39,045 nt of DNA from contig JALXBF010000166.1 in assembly GCA_026991575.1 (NCBI GenBank), forward strand, positions 1-39,045, in the 5' to 3' direction. Below are positions 22,436 through 33,742 of this stretch, piece after piece; the stretch's first letter is position 1; every line of letters begins with the position of its first letter. The position numbers and the translations under genes are program-made. The notes beneath the pieces were generated by a model. The model was given only the letters and a program-made list of their open reading frames with translations, had not been told where the DNA came from and did not search any database. Source of the stretch: Planctomycetota bacterium. GTDB lineage: Bacteria > Planctomycetota > Planctomycetia > JALXBF01.

Positions 22436-22700
22436 CGATCTGCTCCAATCGCTGCCTTCCTCCCAATCCTACCGGGCCGACACAGGCGCGCAGCGCCGCG
22501 CAACCGTTCCCACCGCCAAAATCTTCAACACCGCTCCACCCGGCGGACGAAAAAAACGGTGAGCCCGGCTTCGCGGTGGCCAGGCCCGCAGTCGGTATGC
22601 CCGCCCACAGTGTGCTCCAGAAGCACTGTGGTGATTGACGTACCAGCCTGTCGACCGGCAACGTACTCGGCAGGGGGAAGCGGTCAAGGAGACCGTGCCG

Positions 22701-25700
22701 ATGCAGTCCAGATCTTCAGGACGCTTGCGGGGAGCATTCCTCTGGTGGTCACTGGCTTGTGGCCTCATCCTGAGCACCGTCGGCGGCTGCAGTCGAAAGT
22801 ACTATCGCCTGCAGGCCGACGCGGAAGCTTACCAACTCATCCAGGAGAAGGGCACCGACGAGCGGTGGGCACGACGTGAGTTCTCCGTCTATCCGGACGT
22901 GCGGTCGCGGTTCTACGACCCGTACGATCCGGATTACCCGCCGATGCCCCCAGACGATCCGGAGTCGCATCAGTTCATGCACGAAGTCTACGGCATGAAG
23001 GGTTCCAAACACTGGCACGATTACGGTGATCGGGTCGGCCTGGAAAACCCGTACTGGCGTGACTACCTTGAGCAGTTCATGCGGCGTGACGAGGACGGCT
23101 ACTACATCCTGGACTTGGATGCCACGATCCAGCTGGCCCTGCTGCACTCGCCCGACTACCAGCGAAACCTGGAAGAACTCTACCTGTCGGCCCTGGACGT
23201 TGCTTTCGAGCGATTCCGGTTCGACACCCAGTTCTTCGGCGGCAATCTAACAAACTGGTTCAGCCGCGGTCCACGCCACCCCCAGGCATTCGGCGGCCAG
23301 AGCAGCAGCCAGTTGAGTACCCGTACGTACCTGGGCCGCGGGGGCACGCGTACCCTTGGGGCCGTGGCCGGGATCCAGAAGCTGCTGCCCACCGGCGGAC
23401 AACTGCTGGCAAACTTCGCCAACAGCTTCGTCTGGGAATTCGCCGGCTCAGACCAGAACCTTCAGGCACGCAGCGTGTTCAGCTTTACGTTCATTCAACC
23501 GCTGCTGCGCGCAGGCGGCCGCGACGTGGTGCTCGAGCGGTTGACGATTGCCGAGCGGGCCCTCCTGGCAAACCTCCGTCAGATGGCCCGCTACGAGAAG
23601 CGCTTCTATGCGGACCTGTACTACGGCGGTGGCACCGGTAGTGGGCCGCGGCGGCGCGGTGGCTTCCTCGGTGGTGCCGGTCTGACAGGCTTCGTTGGCC
23701 TGGGTGCGGGCGGCTTTGGAAGCGTCGGCGAGGCGGTCGGCTTCGGCCGCTTCGGCGGTTTCGTGGGCGGCGGAGCTGCCGCTGGTGGTGCAGCCGGCGC
23801 CGGCTTTGCGGCGGGCGTCGCCGTGAACGTCGGCGGCTTCTACGGGCTGGTCCAGCGGATGCAGCAGATCCGTAACCGTGAAGCGAACCTGCAAGCTCAG
23901 TTCGATAACCTCGCCCGTGTGGAAGCTCTGTTCGAGGCCGGCCGAATTGACCGGCTGCAAGTCGACCAGTTCCGCCAGAACGTTCAGTCGGCACGGAGCC
24001 AGTACCTTGATGCGCTCGTCTCATTCCAACGCACATTGGAGAGCTTCTTGACCCGCACGCTCGGCCTACCACCAGACCTGCCGGTCAAGGTAGACGAAGA
24101 GGCGCTGCGGCCGTTCCAGTTCATGGCTCCGGAGGTCACGGCGCTGCAGCGCGAGGTGCGGGCTTACTTGGACGAGGTTCGCGGTGCGGAGTCTCCCAGC
24201 GGCGACCAGATCCGCCGCTGGATCGAACAGTTCCGCTCGTTTCGCGAGCAGATCGGCGACCAGCTAGCGGCGATTGCTGAGGATGTGCAGCGGGCTGAGG
24301 CACTCAGCGACGAACGGCTCCGTCACCTGGAGAGCGAAGAGGAGCGGCGGGAATTCCTCGATCAGCTCAAGACCGTGCACGAACGCTACGAAGAGCTCAT
24401 CAGCCGATTCCAGGCCACCGAAGCCCACGCGGCCGAAGTCGAACAACTGCTCGCCGAAGGCGACGTCGCGGCTGCCCACAACCGGCTGACCGCGTTCACG
24501 GACGAACTCAGCGTCCTGCTGCTGGACATGCCACTGGTGCAGGCCGCAGCCCGCCTGGAGACACTCATCCTGCAGCCGGTCGAACTCGACTCCGAACGCG
24601 CCTTCCGTATCGCCCTGGCAAACCGGCTCGACATCATGAACCAGCGCGCCGAGGTGGTCGATCAGTGGCGGCTGATTGCGTTCAACGCCGACGACCTCGA
24701 GAGCGACCTGGACATCGAATTCGGCGGCGAGATCAACACCGTGGACCGCAACATCGCCAAGTTCCGCGGCAAGGCGGGTCAGTTGACCGCTGCCCTGCAG
24801 TTCGATGCCCCGCTGACCCGTCTGGGTGAGCGGAACGAGTACCGCCAGGCCTTGATCGACTACCAACGGGTCCGCCGCGACTACATCGGGTTCCTGGACG
24901 CCGTCCATGCCAGTCTCCGCGACCTGCTACGACGGATCGACCAGTTCAAACAGGAGATGGAACTGCGCCGACGCGCCATGCGGATTGCCATCCGAACGAT
25001 GGACCTGACCCAGGAGCAGCTGCGGCAACCACCGCGCGTCACGGAAGGTCAGACGACCACGGGGCTCGGGCCCACCGCCGTGCGCGACCTGCTGGCCGCT
25101 TTCTCCGACTTGCTGAACACGCAGAACGACGTCATGGGTACCTACCTGAACTACGAAGCCCTCCGCATGCAGCTGTACATTGACCTTGGCATTGCCAAGT
25201 TCGACGAGCGCGGCCACTGGATTGACGAGCCGCTGGAGGACGCTCTCTACGGCGTCCCCGAGATGGATCCGTACGGGCCACCGCTGTGCCCGCTGGGCCA
25301 CTACGTCCCGCCGCCCGATCCGGCGGGAGCAGATCCCCACGAGTGTACGCCCGACTGCACGCACCCACAACCCGAGGATGGCGGCGCGCTGCCGCCCAGC
25401 GAACTCTGCCCCCACTGCACCGAGATCCGCTACTACCACACCCACGTGCGGAAGGCTTCTTCGAACCAGGACAACATCCAGCACGCCGTTGCGCGACAAC
25501 GGCCGCAGCGCAAGCCTGCCGTTCGGCTGGGCCTTTTCCAGCCCAACGCTCACAGCAGCAGCAGGACCGCCCGCCTGTCACCGAACGCTCCCGTGGTGCC
25601 CGCTGGCAAGGAACGCCCCCTCGTGGATAAGCCCCCGGTCGGGCTGCGCGACGTGATTCGCCGTATGCGGCCCGGACGTTCTGGGCCAGTTGGCCGTGGC

Positions 25701-26057
25701 GCTCACAGCCCGCCAAACGTCCTGCAAGTCCCCCGTGCACTGCCACTGGGGCCGATCCGTTCGGCCAAGCCAGCAACCTCTCCGCGATCGGTCCCTAGCG
25801 GAGCTCCCTCCCCGAGCCGCAAACCTACCTCGGCACCGTCTCCGCCACCACCAGCCGTGCGGCGTTGCCCAGTTTGCGGTCGTGCCGTAGGCAGCGGCTC
25901 CAGCGGCCTCCGCACCCATCAACGACACGGTGGTGCTCAGGGTGTGGTTCAGACTGCCAGTGCTGGTCCGGCGGCTGTGTCGGACTGCAACAAGGGCGGT
26001 TCGTCACACTGGGGCAGTCTTCAGCGTGAGTGGCGGGACGCGCAGGCAATCCGCTGA
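22701..26057 (+). CDS. very large TolC-like outer-membrane efflux lipoprotein (planctomycete type)
   Basis: Lipobox-like VGGC, LALLHSPDYQRNLEELYLSALDV, FIQPLLRAGG, ALANRLDIMNQRA and FDAPLTRLGERNEYR. Sits directly upstream of adaptor and ABC genes. AAGGAG at 22686-22691. Confidence 0.8.
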   Translation: MQSRSSGRLRGAFLWWSLACGLILSTVGGCSRKYYRLQADAEAYQLIQEKGTDERWARREFSVYPDVRSRFYDPYDPDYPPMPPDDPESHQFMHEVYGMKGSKHWHDYGDRVGLENPYWRDYLEQFMRRDEDGYYILDLDATIQLALLHSPDYQRNLEELYLSALDVAFERFRFDTQFFGGNLTNWFSRGPRHPQAFGGQSSSQLSTRTYLGRGGTRTLGAVAGIQKLLPTGGQLLANFANSFVWEFAGSDQNLQARSVFSFTFIQPLLRAGGRDVVLERLTIAERALLANLRQMARYEKRFYADLYYGGGTGSGPRRRGGFLGGAGLTGFVGLGAGGFGSVGEAVGFGRFGGFVGGGAAAGGAAGAGFAAGVAVNVGGFYGLVQRMQQIRNREANLQAQFDNLARVEALFEAGRIDRLQVDQFRQNVQSARSQYLDALVSFQRTLESFLTRTLGLPPDLPVKVDEEALRPFQFMAPEVTALQREVRAYLDEVRGAESPSGDQIRRWIEQFRSFREQIGDQLAAIAEDVQRAEALSDERLRHLESEEERREFLDQLKTVHERYEELISRFQATEAHAAEVEQLLAEGDVAAAHNRLTAFTDELSVLLLDMPLVQAAARLETLILQPVELDSERAFRIALANRLDIMNQRAEVVDQWRLIAFNADDLESDLDIEFGGEINTVDRNIAKFRGKAGQLTAALQFDAPLTRLGERNEYRQALIDYQRVRRDYIGFLDAVHASLRDLLRRIDQFKQEMELRRRAMRIAIRTMDLTQEQLRQPPRVTEGQTTTGLGPTAVRDLLAAFSDLLNTQNDVMGTYLNYEALRMQLYIDLGIAKFDERGHWIDEPLEDALYGVPEMDPYGPPLCPLGHYVPPPDPAGADPHECTPDCTHPQPEDGGALPPSELCPHCTEIRYYHTHVRKASSNQDNIQHAVARQRPQRKPAVRLGLFQPNAHSSSRTARLSPNAPVVPAGKERPLVDKPPVGLRDVIRRMRPGRSGPVGRGAHSPPNVLQVPRALPLGPIRSAKPATSPRSVPSGAPSPSRKPTSAPSPPPPAVRRCPVCGRAVGSGSSGLRTHQRHGGAQGVVQTASAGPAAVSDCNKGGSSHWGSLQREWRDAQAIR

Positions 26058-26427
26058 CTTTGGAAGTTAAGCACTTCTTTGAGTCACCTTTGTTCGCGGC
26101 CGCAGACCGCGCCGTGCCGGAAACGTGGCGCGACAGCGCGCGGTTTGTCGCTTGATATGGGTAGGGGTGTGTGGGGTCGGGGTCGTTCTACCGCTCGTTG
26201 CGCACGTTAGGCCGTCTGGGCGGGTAGAATGGCTCTAGTATGGCCATCGGTGCACAGCGTTCCCCGTTAGCGGCATTCCCCATGTTCAACCTGGGCGTTC
26301 TGTAGGCTCTGGGCGTTGTTGGGCCTGGTCGTAGCGTATAACCGGTGACAGCGCCCGTCGGAGTGTGATCGGGCGGACTTACGCAAGCAGCGGGAGCGGT
26401 GAGCGCCGCGCATTGTGGAGACAGGTC

Positions 26428-28446
26428 ATGAGCAAGTCGGTAGGGTCGGCAACGGGTCGGAGCAGACTTGGGCAGGCATTGCGTTGGATTGTGCTGGCTG
26501 GTGCGGCCACGGGTCTGGCGGGCATTGCCGCCTTCACGCTAGGGGACCTCACTGGGGGCCCCGCACTGGAGGAGCTGGTGCTGACGCCGGTCGAGCGGCA
26601 GGATGTGGACATTGTCATCGTGGAGCGGGGCACGCTGGAAGCCGGGCGTAGCCAGGATTTGGTTTGCGAGGTTGAGAGCCGTAGTCCCGGAGCGCCGGCC
26701 ACGACAATCAAGTGGATCATTCCAGAGGGCACCTCGGTCAAAAAGGGCGATCTGGTATGCGAGCTGGATTCCGCAGCGTTGGAGGATGCCATACGTGCGC
26801 AGCGGATCAAGGTCGAGCAGGCCAAGGCGGCGCTGACGGCCGCGGAAGCGGATCTGGAGATCGTGCGGAGCCAGAACGAGTCGGACATCAAGGCTGCTGA
26901 GCGAACTGTGCAGCTTGCTGAGATCGACCTGAAGAAGTACCTGGAAGGGGACTATCCCAAAGAGCGACGCACGATCGAGGGCAACATTCTGATTGCGCGC
27001 GAGGAGCTACGTCGGGCCGAGGAACGGCTGAAGTATACGGAGCGGCTGTACAAGAAGGGCTTCGTCAGCGCGACGGACGTGGAAGCAGACCGGCTGGCGG
27101 TCATGCGGGCGCGCAACACACTGGAGATGGCCGAGGAAGAGCTGCGCGTGCTGGAGCAGTATACCAAGCCACGTACGGTGACCGAGTTGCAAGGTGCGTT
27201 GGAAGAGGCGAAGCGGGCACTGGAGCGGGTCAAGACCCAGGCGAAGGCCAAGGAGGCCCAGGCGCAGGATACGCTGCTTGCGCAGAAAGCGACCTACGAG
27301 ACAGAGCTGTCCACGCTGAAGAACCTCGAGTACCAGCTCAGCAAGTGCAAGCTATACGCACCCTGTGACGGCATGGTCGTGTATGCGAACGAGCGGTCCC
27401 GCTGGCGTCAGGAGGTGCAGATTGAGGAAGGGGCCTCAGTTCGGGAGGGACAGAAGATCATCCGCATCCCGGACTTGAGCTCTATGCAGGTCAATGTCAA
27501 AGTCCACGAAGCGAAGGTCTCGTATGTACGGCCCGGTCAGCCGGCGATCGTGCGGGTCGAGTCCAGACCGGACGTGGCCTTGAGAGGGCGGGTCAAGTCG
27601 GTGGCCACGATGGCGGACGCTCAGAGCTGGTTCTCGACGGGTGTCCAGGTGTTCACCGTGTTGGTCGCCCTCGACGATCCACCTGAGTGGCTCAAGCCCG
27701 GCATGACGGCCAACGTGCAGATTCTGGCCGACCGGGTCGAGGATGTTCTGGCTGTGCCGGTGCATGCTGTGATCGAGGTGAACGGCAGTTACTTCTGCTT
27801 TGTCAAGCGGGGTGCGGGCATGCCGGAGCCGGTCGAGGTCGTGCTCGGGCCCAGCAACGACAAACTGGTCGTCGTCGAATCGGGCCTGAAGGAAGGCGAC
27901 CTGGTGGTCAACAACGTCCTGTCAGTTGCCGACGACGCGGTGCTGAAGCGGTTGCGTGAAAGGACGAAGGGCTCGGCAGTTGCGGCGCAGGATCGAAAGC
28001 TCTTCAAGACGCTCTCCCGCCAGAGCGCCGGCGGTAGGGGGGCTATTGCTCAGCATGGTACGGCCGCTGGCCCCGGAGCGGTAGCTCACGGTGGTGGCGG
28101 GCCAGCTGCTGGGCCGGGCGGTAGGCCGTCCGCTGGGGACGGGCGTAAGCGGCGCGCCGGCTCAGGGGGTGGTCCAGGGGGCGGTCGTTTTCAGCTGCCT
28201 GCTTCTGGCGCAGCGTACATCGCCCGCTACGACAAGAACGGTGATGGCAAGCTCACGGAGGACGAGCTACCGGAGCGGGCACGGCGCCGATTTGCCCAAA
28301 TGGATAGCAACGGAGACGGTGTCATCGACCAGGCGGAAGCCGACGCGCTGGTGCGTCGCATTCGCGAAATGATCAAACGTTTCCGCCAGCAGGGAGGCGG
28401 GGGGCCTGGTGGCTTCCCGGGTGGTCCTGGCGGGGGGCCGCGCTAG
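26428..28446 (+). CDS. periplasmic adaptor (membrane fusion protein, HlyD/MacA-like) with C-terminal EF-hand pair
   Basis: N-terminal TM, lipoyl-like IIPEGTSVKKGDLVCELD, a long coiled coil, LYAPCDGMVVY, LKPGMTANVQI and SGLKEGDLVV. EF-hand loops DKNGDGKLTEDE and DSNGDGVIDQAE. Confidence 0.92.
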   Translation: MSKSVGSATGRSRLGQALRWIVLAGAATGLAGIAAFTLGDLTGGPALEELVLTPVERQDVDIVIVERGTLEAGRSQDLVCEVESRSPGAPATTIKWIIPEGTSVKKGDLVCELDSAALEDAIRAQRIKVEQAKAALTAAEADLEIVRSQNESDIKAAERTVQLAEIDLKKYLEGDYPKERRTIEGNILIAREELRRAEERLKYTERLYKKGFVSATDVEADRLAVMRARNTLEMAEEELRVLEQYTKPRTVTELQGALEEAKRALERVKTQAKAKEAQAQDTLLAQKATYETELSTLKNLEYQLSKCKLYAPCDGMVVYANERSRWRQEVQIEEGASVREGQKIIRIPDLSSMQVNVKVHEAKVSYVRPGQPAIVRVESRPDVALRGRVKSVATMADAQSWFSTGVQVFTVLVALDDPPEWLKPGMTANVQILADRVEDVLAVPVHAVIEVNGSYFCFVKRGAGMPEPVEVVLGPSNDKLVVVESGLKEGDLVVNNVLSVADDAVLKRLRERTKGSAVAAQDRKLFKTLSRQSAGGRGAIAQHGTAAGPGAVAHGGGGPAAGPGGRPSAGDGRKRRAGSGGGPGGGRFQLPASGAAYIARYDKNGDGKLTEDELPERARRRFAQMDSNGDGVIDQAEADALVRRIREMIKRFRQQGGGGPGGFPGGPGGGPR

Positions 28447-28499
28447 GCTAAGCGTGGCAACGGTGACAGAGGCACGCCAGTGACGAGCGAGAGGGCAAG

Positions 28500-29795
28500 A
28501 TGAGTGCTGGGCCGTCTCTTGGACTTGTCGTCCAGATGGGGCTGAAGAGCCTCTGGATGCACAAGGTCCGCAGTCTGCTTGCGGGCCTGGGCATCGTTAT
28601 TGGCACGGCCGCCGTCATCTCGCTGCTGACCATCGGTGCCGGGTCGCGCAAGGAAGCGCTGGAGGCAATCAAGGCTTTGGGCGCGACGAACTTGATCGTC
28701 GCTAGCGTCAAGCCGCCGCAGGATTCGTCTGACGCGACCCGTCGAGCGCGTATCCTGAAGTACGGCCTCACCTGGGAAGATTACGAACGCTTCGCGGCCA
28801 TCCCGACCGTGTGGCGCGCGCTGCCAATCCGGGCGTTCCCAGCCGAGATCTGGTACCTGGAAAACAAGTTTGACGGCCGTGTCGTAGCAACCACACCGCG
28901 CTACGCGGAAATGAATCGGCTCCACCTCTTATCGGGCAGGTTCCTGACGGACCGAGACGAGGACACGTTCGATAACGTGGCCGTGCTCGGCTTTGACGTC
29001 GCGCGCGAGCTGTTCCGATATGAGGATCCGATCGGCAAGTCGATCAAGATGGGGAACCACTACTATCGGGTCGTCGGTGTCATGGACTATCGGATCCCGT
29101 CGGCTGGTATCGGTGGTAGTCTGGCACGCGAGGACTACAACAAGGACGTCTACATCCCGCTGTCAACGTGCCGCGCGCGGTTCGGAGCGTGGATCATCGA
29201 TCGACGTTCTGGTCAGTTCACTGCTGAGGAGCTAGAGCTGAGTCAGGTAACGTTGTCGGTGCGCGATGTTGATGACGTGCGCCCGACGGCGGCCATTCTG
29301 AAAACGCTCCTAGAAAAGTACCACGATCAACCCGACTATCAGATCACCGTCCCGCTGGATCTGCTTGAGGATGCCGAACGGACTGCCCTCTTATGGGCCG
29401 TTTTCCTCGGGGTTGTTGCCGGTATTTCGCTCCTGGTTGGCGGCATTGGCATTGCCAACATCATGCTTGCCACCGTCATGGAACGGACCCGGGAAATCGG
29501 TATTCGACGGGCGATCGGTGCCAAGCAACGGCACATTGCGCAGCAGTTCCTGGTCGAAGCAGTCATTCTGACGGCCATCGGCGGCGTGGTCGGCCTGGTG
29601 CTCGGGGTGGTGACACCCGAACTCATTGCGTTCGTGGCTGATGCGCTGTTCGATTATCAGGTGCGGACGCAGATTCTCTGGTGGAGTTTGCCGATGGCAC
29701 CGGCCATTGCCGTGGTCGTCGGCGTGCTGTCCGGACTGTACCCGGCCCGGCGGGCCGCGCTGATGGACCCGATCGAAGCGTTGCGGCACGAGTAG
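28500..29795 (+). CDS. MacB/FtsX-family ABC transporter permease
   Basis: RSLLAGLGIVIGTAAVI, a periplasmic domain, ISLLVGGIGIANIMLATVMERTREIGIRRAIGA and GLYPARRAALMDPIEALRHE. Confidence 0.95.
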   Translation: MSAGPSLGLVVQMGLKSLWMHKVRSLLAGLGIVIGTAAVISLLTIGAGSRKEALEAIKALGATNLIVASVKPPQDSSDATRRARILKYGLTWEDYERFAAIPTVWRALPIRAFPAEIWYLENKFDGRVVATTPRYAEMNRLHLLSGRFLTDRDEDTFDNVAVLGFDVARELFRYEDPIGKSIKMGNHYYRVVGVMDYRIPSAGIGGSLAREDYNKDVYIPLSTCRARFGAWIIDRRSGQFTAEELELSQVTLSVRDVDDVRPTAAILKTLLEKYHDQPDYQITVPLDLLEDAERTALLWAVFLGVVAGISLLVGGIGIANIMLATVMERTREIGIRRAIGAKQRHIAQQFLVEAVILTAIGGVVGLVLGVVTPELIAFVADALFDYQVRTQILWWSLPMAPAIAVVVGVLSGLYPARRAALMDPIEALRHE

Positions 29796-29843
29796 CCGAA
29801 CTGGTTCCGCTCACCAGGTAGCACGAAACAAGAAGACTGTGCT

Positions 29844-30674
29844 ATGACCGTACAGCCAAGTCAGATCACCGAGCGAGAACGGCAGCCTGACGCAGGTTTG
29901 CAGACCTCCGGAGAGCCCGTCGTTCGCATCGTCGACATCCACAAGGACTATTACCTAGGTAGTGTCGTCGTGCCGGCGCTGCGCGGGGTCTCGCTGGAAG
30001 TGTACCCCGGTGAGTTCATCGCGATCATGGGCGCGTCCGGTTCGGGAAAATCGACGCTGCTAAACCTGCTTGGCTGCCTGGACCGCCCCACGCGTGGCCA
30101 GTATTACCTGGGCGGGCGAAACGTCGCAAATCTCAGCGATGATGAACTTTCTGAGATCCGCAGCCGCTACATCGGGTTCATCTTTCAGTCCTACAACCTC
30201 ATTCCTCAGCTGACCGCGTTCGAGAACATCGAGGTGCCGCTCTATTACCAGGGTAACGTAAGCCCTGAGTCGAAGCAGCGGGTTGTCGAGCTGGCACGTC
30301 TGGTAGGCTTGGAGCGGTGGCTAAACCACAAACCAACCCAACTCTCCGGTGGCCAGCAGCAGCGCGTTGCGATTGCCCGCGCATTGATCAACGATCCGTA
30401 CATCATCCTAGCCGATGAGCCAACCGGGAACCTGGACACGAGCACCAGTTACGAGATCATGAAACTGCTCGTACAACTCAACGACATGGGGAAGACGATC
30501 ATCATGGTCACGCACGAACCGGACATTGCTGCATACGCCAAGCGTGCGGTGCACATGCGTGACGGTAAGATCATCAAGGACGAGCCGATAACGCAGCGAC
30601 GGGTCACTTCAGATGGCCCCGTGCCGGCCGGCGCACAGCTCACCGCCAGTGCGGGCCAGGACGCGGGCGAGTAG
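29844..30674 (+). CDS. MacB/LolD-type ABC transporter ATP-binding protein
   Basis: [44 protein letters not shown] and VTHE. Confidence 0.96.
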
Positions 30675-30725
30675 AGGGTGCGACTGGATGCTGCCCGCCG
30701 GTGAGCTTCCAAGTCTGGGGCTGGC

Positions 30726-31931
30726 ATGAAGCAGAGTACAGCGTACACCAACGCCGCTGTCCCGCCGCACGACGGACACACCGTCACGGCGCACGGGGCG
30801 CGGCGCCGCCGGTTGGTTTTTCTTGTGACCATCGCCGTACTGATTCCTGTGTGCGGCTGGCGGCTCCAGCAATTGGCCCGGCAACCGGCCGCCACCGATG
30901 GTTCGGTGGATCCGCGCTGGTTGCTCCGCTGCTACACGCGAGCACGCCGGACGTTTGCTCCAGGTGATCGCACCGGTGTCCTCCCAGGCCATCTCTACGG
31001 ACGACCGATTCTGTTGGCTGTCCAGCTTGCTCGGGATCCTGACGCCGGGTACTGGCCGCTCGTGGCGATGGTTACCGGTGCTGATTTTCTAGCCGCCCAT
31101 CGTGCGGAGGCTGCCGTGGAATTGGTGCGACGCTACGCTGATCGGAAGGAACATCTCGTCCGCCTTTTCCTCGGCACCTCTGATCAGTCGTTTTACGACC
31201 CCCGGCCGATGTACCAAGCGCTGTTACGCGAGAGCTCGCTGGACGATCTGCTTCGTGCCGTCATCTGCTACAGCTACGCGGAATGGCTGGCGCGCTACCA
31301 GCCACGTTCCGTTGCGCGCGACGAACAGATCCGACGGCTCTGTCAGACTGCCTTGGAGCATGGCGCCGAGAAGGTGCGCCATCCGATCTTTCCCCCGTAT
31401 ACGCTGGCGGATATGGCATCCATGCTGGTGCGGGAAGTGGACGCTGTGCGTCCGGGTAAGCCGGCCCCCTCGATTCGCGGCGTCGATCTGGCCGGTCGCA
31501 AGATGAGTCTCGAGGACTTTCGCGGAAAGGTCGTGCTGCTGTACTTTTGGGGAGCTTGGTGACCGGTTTGCGCCGCGTGGCGCGACTGCGAGCGGTCGCT
31601 CGCTGAAATGTTCCCCCCGGAGAAGGTTGCCCTATTGGGAGTGAACAGCGACCCAGACCCCAGGGTTGCTGCTGCCGACCTGGTCCGGGGATGGCGCTCC
31701 TGGTGGGACGGCGGTACCACAGGCCAGATCGCACGTGACTACGCTGTGGTTGTCTACCCGACGCTCTTTGTCATTGACCAGCAAGGCGTGATTGTGGCGC
31801 GGTTTGAGAAGAACCAGTTCGACCAGCGGCTGTGTGACCGCGTTAAGAAACTGGTGCAGGACCTCTTGGACCGCCCGCCCGATCCGGCTGCGGCCGACGC
31901 GGTCCAGGGCAACTGCATGGAGGGCAGCTGA
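30726..31931 (+). CDS. TlpA/redoxin-family thiol-disulfide oxidoreductase with in-frame TGA (UxxC, probable selenocysteine at codon 279)
   Basis: ORFs 30726-31562 and 31608-31931 are in the same frame and separated only by TGA at 31560-31562. Readthrough gives PGKPAPSIRGVDLAGRKMSLEDFRGKVVLLYFWGAW-U-PVCAAWRDCERSLAEMFPPEKVALLGVNSD...YAVVVYPTLFVIDQQGVI, a complete thioredoxin fold (401 aa). Confidence 0.85.
31560..31598 (+). promoter_or_regulatory. SECIS-like stem-loop immediately 3' of the in-frame UGA
   Basis: Upper stem GCGCC (31570-31574)/GGCGC (31579-31583) with a GCGU loop. Lower stem UGACCG (31560-31565)/CGGUCG (31593-31598). Confidence 0.5.
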
Positions 31932-32344
31932 AAGCGGTTTCTGTTCGGCTGGCGGCCAGGTCACTTGCAGTCCCTCGTGCCCGAGCGCCCACGTCCGACA
32001 TCCCCTCAGACCCCGTCCGACCGATGCCTGTGGCTACTTTGGCCCTCCTGGGCCTGGCACGTCAGGCCGGTGCTCGCTACGGTCTGAGTGGGGACGGGCC
32101 AACGAGCCGAACCTTGCTTGGCGCCCTCATCAGACGTGCTATCGTTGCTTGACGGTAACCACGGCGATCGACCCACCGCCGTCGGACCTATCTGGCGCCA
32201 CCCATCCCCGTTTGTTGCCCTTGTGCGACTGAAGTACATCGGTTCCTGCCGCGGCGTGCCGTATGTGGTCCGGTAGTGCCGTGTCAGGGACCGCGTGACC
32301 GCGAGCGTAACGGGCGACCAACCAGAGGCGAGGTGAGGAAGAGC

Positions 32345-33742
32345 ATGCTTACCAGCGTGATTCATGCCACAGCCAACACGCCTGCATCCGGTGGCGGCAG
32401 CAGTGCGTGCAGCCTGCGTGAGGGCACCTTGCGGCGCTTTGCCCGTCAGATCCTCGATGTGGTGCCCGTCAACGTGATGATCGCTGATAGCCAACTGCGA
32501 CTGCGTTACCTTAACCCAGCGGCCATCGCCGCCTTCCAGCAGATTCGACACCTGCTGCCCGTACCGCCGGAGCAGATGATCGGGCAATGCATCGATATCT
32601 TCCACAAGGATCCCCAGCGGGTGCGCCGCATCCTGGCCGACCCTAGCCGCCTGCCCCATTCGGCTCGATTCACCATCGGGGACGAGACGATTGCCCAGAC
32701 GGTCTACCCCCTGCGCGACCGCATGGGACGCATTGTCGGCTACGTGTCGATCTGGCGGCTGGCTACCAAGGAGCTGGAAGCGGAGCGTTACCAGCGCACC
32801 CTGCATGAGGTGCTCAGTCGTGTGTCCCGACTTGCCGCCGTTATCACGGAGTCCGCTGAGGAGCTAAGCCGGGTCAGTCGCGAGATGTCGGCCAACGCCG
32901 GTGAAACCTCAACACAGGCGCAAGCGGTCTCCGAGTCCGCCCGACAGGTCAGCGCCAGCGCGAACGCGGTGGCAGCCGCCGTGGAACAGCTGCGCGCGAG
33001 TATCGAGGAAATTGCTCACAATGCGGCGCAGTCCACGCGGGTTGTTGGCGAGGCCAATCGGATAGCGGATCAAGCCAGCAGGACCGTGTCCCGTCTGGGC
33101 GAGTCAAGCGCTGAGATTGGCGAGGTGGTCAAGATGATCACATCCATTGCCCAGCAAACCAGCCTGCTGGCGCTGAACGCCACGATTGAAGCGGCTCGGG
33201 CAGGCGAAGCCGGCAAAGGCTTCGCGGTGGTGGCTAATGAAGTTAAGGAGCTCGCCAAGGAAACGGCGCAGGCCACCGAGGAGATCGGGCACAAGGTGCA
33301 CAGCATACAGGAAGCAACCGAGGCAGCAATCACGGCGATTGATCAAATTACTTCCATCATGAAACAGGTCGACGAAGCTTCGACCACGATTGCCAGCGCT
33401 GTCGAAGAGCAATCGATCACGGTCCAGGAGATCAGCCAGAACGTGGCCCACGCGGCGCAGGGCACGCAGCAGATTGCCGACAACACGGGCGCGGTCGCTC
33501 AGCTGGCGGAAGGGGCCAGCCGTGGTGCGGCGACCGTGCTTGACGCGGCCGCCCAGCTGACTGAGCTGGCCCAGGAAGTGGACGCCCTGCTGCGCAGCGT
33601 TCAGACGACGCGCAATGGCGTCGGGCAGAGCAGTGGCGCGAAACGGGCCGACTTACGGCAGGCGGCTGAGCCGCAGAAGGAACCGGCGGGCTATGCGCTC
33701 GGCACCGCGGCGCGCGAATTCGCCGCCAGCGCGAACCGGTAG
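32345..33742 (+). CDS. soluble methyl-accepting chemotaxis protein with Aer2-like PAS domain
   Basis: PAS domain [16 protein letters not shown]...IDIFHKDP...YVSIW and the MCP hairpin [37 protein letters not shown]. No TM segment. GAGG precedes ATG 32345. Confidence 0.93.

Follow-up and report, generated by a model that had tools for sequence, protein, structure and literature searches.

The window analysed here is a 39,045-nucleotide (nt) stretch of DNA from a Planctomycetota bacterium (assembly GCA_026991575.1, contig JALXBF010000166.1), and the gene in question occupies 30726–31931 on its forward strand. As judged from the sequence, this is very probably a genuine selenoprotein gene of 401 residues, with selenocysteine (Sec) at codon 279. 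The predicted product is a redox enzyme anchored in the membrane and facing outward, with Sec in place of the reactive Cys.

Reading frame, homologs and Sec machinery

Two open reading frames (ORFs) are found here under translation table 11, one at 30726–31562 (278 aa, ending ...LLYFWGAW) and one at 31608–31931 (107 aa). The first-pass annotation, made without database searches, had joined these as one frame broken by a single TGA at 31560–31562 in FWGAW-TGA-PVC, with no frameshift and no further stop, and the translation agrees on both counts. The DNA at 31545–31571 is TTT TGG GGA GCT TGG TGA CCG GTT TGC. Read-through of the gene gives 401 residues, with U as codon 279 in FWGAW-U-PVC and a TGA at 31929–31931 as the terminal stop. 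After the internal TGA the frame is open for 122 more codons and all of the fold motifs are intact, including the GVNSD and cis-Pro YPT motifs that had been placed in the downstream half.

On the read-through protein the Pfam model AhpC-TSA scores 63.5 bits (cut-off 26) over aa 243–358, continuous across the TGA. Redoxin (49.6 bits, cut-off 26.6) and Thioredoxin_8 (29.5 bits, cut-off 27) are likewise above their gathering cut-offs. In 3hdc, matched in a PDB search by sequence (E 3.9e-14), the residue aligned with U279 is the first Cys of WCPYC. The expectation that annotation pipelines would split the gene is borne out by the public protein database, where the entry for it is the 278-aa product only. 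A 291-aa relative in the same database (P0003), 58% identical over the N-terminal part, stops at the same residue, ...YFWGAW. Isosphaeraceae and Planctomycetota are among the names carried by Cys-type homologs there.

A six-frame search of 61 related genomes with the read-through protein gave 413 matches, of which 150 were listed. Among the matches listed, 15 were flagged for an in-frame TGA. Seven of these, the gene itself included, have the TGA at the first CxxC position, seven are Cys forms in which the TGA is elsewhere and is mostly the terminal stop, and one (L048) is unaligned. The Sec forms besides the gene itself are six homologs from five genomes, all with TGA at the identical column. 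The motif is W-U-PVC in the gene itself, W-U-LVC in L023 from the same family, W-U-GPC in L025 and L043 from the same order, and G-U-GPC in L026 from another family of the class. L045 and L047 have TGA at both motif positions, as U-PN-U and U-LT-U. TGC or TGT is present at the Sec column at 17 homolog sites in 16 loci, a count that excludes L030, L031, L036 and L042, which were not caught by the motif regular expression. The tabulation of TGA against TGC/TGT that had been proposed as a check therefore gives seven Sec and 17 Cys sites at one column. An in-frame UGA aligned with Cys in homologs is one of the patterns by which bacterial selenoproteins are recognized.

A tree was built from 34 redoxin domains, those of the seven Sec forms, the 17 Cys forms and 10 sites hand-picked from 34 pattern-derived Sec sites. 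On it, 3 changes suffice to explain the Sec label, compared with a mean of 11.6 for shuffled labels. L023 is the partner of the gene, with 100/100 support and a long branch, and another Sec form, L064, is outside the Sec group, without support. The Cys form L027 (G031:C1:3351986-3352537; F-G-C-LPC) groups with L026, a Sec form, at 97/89, apparently as a reversion from Sec to Cys inside the Sec clade. The two forms with Sec at both positions, L045 and L047, pair at 100/98. UxxU sites are also found at G376:C37:59381-59423, G183:C54:24884-24926 and G251:C4:7394230-7394272, and such forms could form a diselenide.

The window is contig C166 of a 4.96-Mb genome in 191 contigs, rated 97.8% complete. 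It contains no sel genes, as had been stated in the first-pass annotation. The genome search for selA, selB, selD and tRNA-Sec(UCA) that was to follow found all four on another contig, C184, where selD, selB, selA and tRNA-Sec are consecutive on one strand and all above curated cut-offs (Table 1). TGA is the commonest stop of the genome, ending 851 of the 1837 open frames of at least 400 codons, therefore the code is not reassigned. At least five other genes of the genome have an in-frame TGA. Four genes with the AhpC/TSA fold are of this kind, and in two of them (on C87 and C65) the TGA is at the peroxidatic-Cys position (TPVU and TPGU). A further candidate is at C22:1066 (+), with an 11-bp hairpin. 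When the whole genome was scanned for a TGA with a GGTC-loop hairpin after it, 63 candidates came up, mostly spurious open frames in this 64% GC genome, and the scan was kept as a lead only.

The candidate SECIS and its spread in the phylum

Two hairpins are present 3' of the UGA (Table 1), and the second of these, hairpin 2, is proposed as the recoding signal, a candidate selenocysteine insertion sequence (SECIS). Its apical loop, GGUC, is at 31594–31597 and starts 31 nt after the UGA. In all seven of the homology-found Sec forms, GGUC lies precisely 31 nt after the TGA and is enclosed by a stem of 6 bp or more. In contrast, the GGUC loop is found at this position in none of the 17 Cys forms, the longest stem there being 3 bp. 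Across the seven Sec sequences the hairpin 2 arms pair in 95.9% of cells, against 14–45% when the partner is slid by 1–3 columns. Three of seven pairs have changed on both sides, with C-G to U-A and G-C to A-U in L023, and A-U to G-C in the gene itself. The observed score was reached by only 2 of 500 shuffles. The residues encoded under hairpin 2 are (H)ERSL(V), in place of which HEREL or HEKAL is seen in the Cys forms. There is no variation in the arm codons CGG-TCG-CTC, whereas the neighbouring third positions are variable.

The loops found after other TGAs of the same genome are GGU at +32 in selD, GGUC at +29 in the C190 gene and GGUUC at +20 in the C67 gene. A stem-loop just 3' of the UGA with a G in a small apical loop is the bacterial arrangement given in the available part of PMC1088965, and it is present here. 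The GGUC hairpin is retained in the UxxU homologs. In L045 another hairpin, with GGUU as its loop, is also present, nearer the first UGA.

In an even sample of 401 genomes from the phylum, 68 have the signature TGA-N26-CRAGCGGTCGCTYG, among them 50 of the 244 high-quality ones, and the reversed control gave 0. Every one of the 41 signature sites in the fetched loci is in frame and in an FWGxW-U-xxC...ERSL context, the frames having about 250–350 codons upstream and 100–130 downstream. These loci (L050–L079) were picked by the hairpin itself and were excluded as support for it, therefore a second, hairpin-independent pattern search was run. The pattern F-W-x-x-W-TGA-x-x-C was present in 89 of the 401 genomes, with 175 matches and a reversed control of 1. 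Among the 150 matches listed, an eye count gave 99 with GAGCGGTCGCTCG, 2 with a G.U variant and 49 without. The sites that lack hairpin 2 include other families as well as TlpA-like forms, therefore the ERSL hairpin marks one large clade rather than all Sec redoxins of the phylum.

Many of the sites without hairpin 2 have a longer, earlier hairpin over R-A-M-x-P-H codons (for example G106:C206:5146-7080, G303:C18:176234-177397 and G152:C65:10754-10812), which suggests a second SECIS solution in related genes. F-W-A-E-W-U-G-G-C is found at G180:C74:22571-22629, G293:C45:35184-35242 and G419:C86:6865-6923, and F-W-A-E-W-U-P-S-C at G432:C184:48084-48142. These sites have the classical thioredoxin motif with Sec and are probably Sec-thioredoxins of the phylum. 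Tandem pairs or triplets of Sec-redoxin genes are frequent, as at L059:759 and 1797 (+), L060:1500 and 2544 (+), and L062:534 and 1500 (-), with three Sec-redoxin sites inside 2 kb on G106:C206. Up to six F-W-x-x-W-U-x-x-C sites are found per genome (G127, G177).

Several observations weigh against this reading of the gene and its hairpin. The 71 nt around the site have an unremarkable folding energy (z -0.49, with 55 of 200 shuffles folding as well). Energy alone is no better than for shuffles, therefore the comparative evidence is relied upon, and on that evidence the case for hairpin 2 is strong. The gene's own hairpin 2 is only 6 bp, and a rival 7-bp pairing, GCGACTG-CGAG-CGGTCGC, is possible. 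Hairpin 2 lies over a conserved E-R-S-L, therefore its conservation is partly at the protein level. The seven Sec forms share ancestry in one Sec-rich group of the tree and therefore are not seven independent events. An Rfam scan of 31450–31750 at E<=10 found no SECIS family and a single chance microRNA match. The 49 of 150 listed F-W-x-x-W-U-x-x-C sites that lack the ERSL hairpin, some of them from other families, are about a third of those listed, therefore hairpin 2 is not the sole solution. The gene is also a long-branch member, 38% identical to L023 and with PVC where others have GPC. The protein reaches no NCBIfam equivalog cut-off, scoring 51.5 against 170 for ResA (NF002854), 28.8 against 123.15 for DsbE (TIGR00385) and 27 against 230 for TlpA (NF047696).

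Other accounts of the TGA can be set against Sec recoding. The locus would be the pseudogene of a CxxC redoxin if the TGA were a private nonsense mutation or had arisen through faulty sequencing or assembly, and gene callers do stop at the TGA, with the public databases carrying only the 278-aa product. However, TGA is at the same column in six homologs from five genomes, the signature is in 68 of 401 genomes, the 122 further codons are open with the fold motifs intact, a conserved hairpin follows the TGA, and P0003 ends at the same ...YFWGAW. The codon has also been recovered elsewhere. The whole stretch is present in one hydrothermal-vent metagenome run, probably its source. A different sample of that study gave a 151-nt contig that covers 31484–31626 with zero differences, and a 2805-nt contig from another study has 12 differences over 31521–31604, none of them listed at 31560–31562. 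Mutation or error is hardly credible on this evidence and is already largely refuted. Treating the UGA as a true stop, with a 278-aa anchored helical protein and a separate 107-aa protein from the ATG at 31608, would break the thioredoxin fold after strand beta-1, ahead of the active-site helix. The second Cys and the helix start (PVCAAWRDCERSLAE) would stay untranslated. The Pfam and structure searches score one continuous domain and the 107-aa piece is without a CxxC. Two such products are therefore quite improbable, even though both ORFs exist under table 11 and termination competes with Sec insertion at any UGA. Read-through without Sec, by near-cognate insertion of Trp or Cys or under a reassigned code, is very improbable where TGA is the commonest stop and also terminates the gene itself. 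The complete Sec machinery, the SECIS-type hairpin and the Sec/Cys pairing at the redox Cys are all hallmarks of Sec recoding.

A further alternative concerns the mechanism only, and has SelB binding to hairpin 1, or to both hairpins, and not to hairpin 2 by itself. Of the local helices in the gene's own sequence, hairpin 1 (7 bp) is the more stable, and its distance to the UGA is nearer to that in Escherichia coli fdhF. Among the matches listed, Sec forms of the phylum that lack hairpin 2 show a longer hairpin at an earlier position, and the UxxU form L045 has its GGUU loop at the hairpin 1 position. However, hairpin 1 varies in sequence across the seven Sec forms, and its loop in the gene itself is without GG. 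In L023 the stem of hairpin 2 is 11 bp and takes bases that hairpin 1 would need. It is also hairpin 2 that separates the Sec from the Cys forms and that matches the selD and C190 loops in type and spacing. A part for hairpin 1 is therefore considered unlikely, and hairpin 2 is retained as the candidate SECIS.

Architecture, gene neighbourhood and proposed mechanism

Table 1. Positions of the features discussed, in the window or, where a contig handle is given, elsewhere in the same genome
Feature	Position	Strand	Basis or remark
HlyD-type membrane-fusion protein	26365-28446	+	Pfam
MacB-type permease (MacB_PCD/FtsX)	28500-29795	+	Pfam
ATP-binding cassette (ABC) ATPase	29844-30674	+	Pfam
Whole predicted selenoprotein gene, 401 codons and terminal TGA stop	30726-31931	+	Single frame with one internal TGA; Pfam redoxin domains across the break
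Predicted hydrophobic membrane anchor, L30-W45, after RRRR	30813-30860	+	Top 19-residue hydropathy window starts at residue 30; AlphaFold helix 24-52
All-helical N-domain, aa 63-239	30912-31442	+	Ten helices, predicted local distance difference test score (pLDDT) mostly >90 (AlphaFold)
TlpA/ResA/CcmG-type thioredoxin-fold (redoxin) domain, aa 243-382	31452-31871	+	Pfam, PDB sequence search, Foldseek, VIA
UGA codon 279, predicted Sec (attacking position of UxxC)	31560-31562	+	Aligned with first Cys of WCxxC in solved relatives; TGA or TGC/TGT in homologs
Hairpin 1, 7-bp stem UUGCGCC/GGCGCGA, loop GCGU	31568-31585	+	12 nt after UGA; secondary SECIS candidate or lower element
TGC codon 282, predicted resolving Cys of U-P-V-C	31569-31571	+	C282 column nearly invariant in 28-sequence alignment A1
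Hairpin 2, proposed SECIS, 6-bp stem GCGAGC/GCUCGC	31588-31603	+	Encodes (C)ERSL(A)
CCG codon for P345, cis-Pro of thioredoxin fold (VYPT)	31758-31760	+	Column nearly invariant in alignment A1
selD	C184:25019-25945	+	358.5 bits, cut-off 125; own in-frame TGA at CAG-U-AGK
selB	C184:26206-28098		383.5 bits, cut-off 242
selA	C184:28416-29510		484.1 bits
tRNA-Sec	C184:29695-29790		73.3 bits, cut-off 47; ARAGORN anticodon tca
Peroxiredoxin with in-frame TGA	C87:26427-26807	-	FTPV-U-S
BCP-like protein with in-frame TGA	C65:15988-16371	-	STPG-U-T
Redoxin-fold protein with in-frame TGA	C190:20144-20461	+	FSFLQ-U-GGC
Redoxin-fold protein with in-frame TGA	C67:6017-6283	+	RHLN-U-IAC

The protein was modelled with AlphaFold from alignment A1, which holds 28 full-length sequences, locus-edge ORFs and doubtful starts being left out. 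The model has a pLDDT of 88.9 and a predicted template modelling score (pTM) of 0.81. It fits the proposal in the first-pass annotation of a membrane-anchored or exported protein with a long helical N-terminal region. The sequence (RRRR and a 16-residue hydrophobic stretch), its hydropathy and the model are together compatible with an extracytoplasmic location, and by the positive-inside rule the topology would be N-in/C-out. Other members of the clade have signal-peptide-like N-termini, and on this basis an extracytoplasmic role is predicted for the family.

The N-domain matches no Pfam family at E<=1, and L023 is the sole match in a phmmer search with it (E 4e-7). Folded alone (pLDDT 83.4), its best structural match has a Z of 9.0, and only proteins like the tetratricopeptide repeat and designed helical repeats are matched. 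This Z lies below the tool's meaningful level for helical proteins, and novelty of the fold does not follow from it.

In the C-terminal part of the model the thioredoxin fold spans 251–382, with a strand at 269–275 followed by the Sec just before a helix at 280–284. The structures matched by VIA include the DsbE-like 3gl3 (Z 20.0; root-mean-square deviation 1.7 Å over 138 residues), ResA 2f9s (17.5), CcmG (16.6) and TlpA 1jfu (14.5). Foldseek agrees with this, giving ResA, CcmG and TlpA matches. By its predicted structure and the conservation of P345, the domain has a thioredoxin fold in which helix 1 begins at a CxxC-type site and a cis-Pro loop is present. Two DsbD_TM (CcdA/DsbD-type) genes are present in the genome and could supply electrons.

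Four genes on one strand, with gaps of 48–56 nt between them, end with the selenoprotein gene, and no promoter- or terminator-like site was found in 30500–32400. The four genes at 26365–31931 are probably one operon, in which the selenoprotein gene is co-transcribed with a MacAB-type efflux pump. L023 retains the order permease (88% identical), ATPase (81%) and Sec-redoxin (38%). In this comparison, over 28500–31931 of the window, the Sec-redoxin evolves much faster than its operon partners. A functional link between the selenoprotein and the pump is possible. The downstream MCP-type gene was considered as a member of the system and dropped, as it is not conserved in L023. Pfam searches of the neighbours found no cytochrome-c-maturation or copper-chaperone gene adjoining the selenoprotein gene. 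The HlyD-type protein (26365–28443, +) has EF-hand calcium-binding motifs near its C-terminus, at aa 619–662. The 1140-codon ORF at 22635–26054 (+) has no Pfam family at E<=1e-6.

In the mechanism proposed, UGA codon 279 would be recoded to Sec by the genome's own SelB and tRNA-Sec(UCA), with the in-ORF stem-loop at 31588–31603 and its GGUC loop 31 nt after the UGA as the recoding signal. A single N-terminal helix would anchor the product in the cytoplasmic membrane, and the remainder is predicted to be outside the cytoplasm. This outer part would consist of the helical-repeat domain and then the TlpA/ResA/CcmG-type fold with its active site W-U-P-V-C. By analogy with the family, Sec279 would attack a substrate disulfide or sulfenate and Cys282 would resolve the selenylsulfide. 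The active site would then be re-reduced via a CcdA/DsbD-type membrane protein, as in the family. In cells short of selenium or SelB, translation would end at the UGA, and the resulting 278-residue protein would have no functional redox fold.

A wider reading of the gene can be offered tentatively. The gene would be a divergent offshoot of a large clade of the phylum, perhaps undescribed as such, with members that are exported, bear Sec and have a helical-repeat domain joined to a TlpA-like domain. One inherited SECIS, written in conserved E-R-S-L codons, would be common to all members, and the clade would also have given rise to UxxU forms and occasional Cys reversions. Here the gene would have become the fourth in a MacAB-type efflux operon, and its product would serve the pump, or the pump's cargo, as a dedicated selenol redox partner in the periplasm. 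That all of these parts hold together is doubtful.

Public protein sets give truncated products for this gene and its relatives. With these truncated entries, and with no NCBIfam model reaching the clade, a whole group of redox enzymes is therefore under-called in the phylum. TGA-N26-CRAGCGGTCGCTYG is a simple and specific signature with which to recover such genes. The gene adds a predicted outward-facing selenoprotein to a genome from hydrothermal-vent metagenomes, and selenium and sulfur chemistry can be compared in a single active site that occurs naturally with Sec, Cys or Sec-Sec. What is known of how Sec is encoded is unchanged, the principle being a textbook one.

Relation to known systems

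The loop of the E. coli fdhF SECIS contains GGUC. Like that element, hairpin 2 is an in-ORF stem-loop just 3' of the UGA with a small, G-containing apical loop. It differs in that its loop starts 31 nt after the UGA, which is farther than in fdhF.

The Cys-type ResA, CcmG/DsbE and TlpA proteins (1su9, 3kh7, 2b1k, 1jfu, 3gl3, 3hdc) share with the predicted protein the fold, a WCxxC-type site at the start of helix 1 and the cis-Pro. They also have an N-terminal anchor that places the domain outside the cytoplasm, as is predicted here. The protein differs from them in having Sec, as predicted, for the attacking Cys and in its extra helical domain. Two NCBIfam models describe ResA-like folds with Sec. 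Against NF041054, 'ResA-like WAxxUGC motif-containing protein', the score is 21.4 (cut-off 300) and the motif here is GAW-U-PVC. Against NF053656, 'TUGYCR motif thioredoxin fold (seleno)protein', it is 22.4 (cut-off 100) and the motif is absent. Five other members of the clade also miss every NCBIfam cut-off.

A literature search for selenoproteins of Planctomycetota found, by title and the start of the abstract, no dedicated paper and incidental mentions only. The words 'Planctomycet' and 'TlpA' are absent from the main texts of deep-Sep and BSepDB. Table S1 of BSepDB has 746 planctomycete-named genome rows, however, and members of the clade may already be filed in that database.

SaoT is described in the available part of PMC13188914 as a thioredoxin-like UxxC selenoprotein encoded with ABC-transporter genes. 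The gene described here is alike in being a predicted thioredoxin-like UxxC selenoprotein gene that adjoins ABC-transporter genes. The SaoT model NF040730 does not match the protein at E<=0.01. As far as that account goes, the transporters also differ, as the one here has a MacB/FtsX permease and a HlyD-type adaptor, as for efflux, and is not a system with substrate-binding subunits. UxxU sequences have been noted before, in a Prx-like family in 2008 (PMC2398784, from the part available).

The nearest known kind is a UxxC family, 'Thiol-disulfide isomerase-like protein', listed among the new selenoprotein families of 2005 by Zhang, Fomenko and Gladyshev (PMC1088965). It was later mapped to pfam13905 / cd02966, TlpA-like (PMC9312934, PMC13188914), as these sources read in the parts available. 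The UxxC of the predicted protein, U-P-V-C, is in a Thioredoxin_8 domain, as is the UxxC of the 2005 family when the two are compared by description only. The available descriptions also agree with the gene in the TlpA-like thioredoxin fold, in Sec at the first position of UxxC, in widespread Cys homologs, and in a SECIS-like stem-loop just downstream with G in its apical loop. The predicted protein differs in its own membrane anchor and helical N-domain of about 180 residues, which those parts of the 2005 description do not mention for the family. On these accounts, TlpA-like UxxC selenoproteins have been catalogued since 2005, and the gene joins an existing kind.

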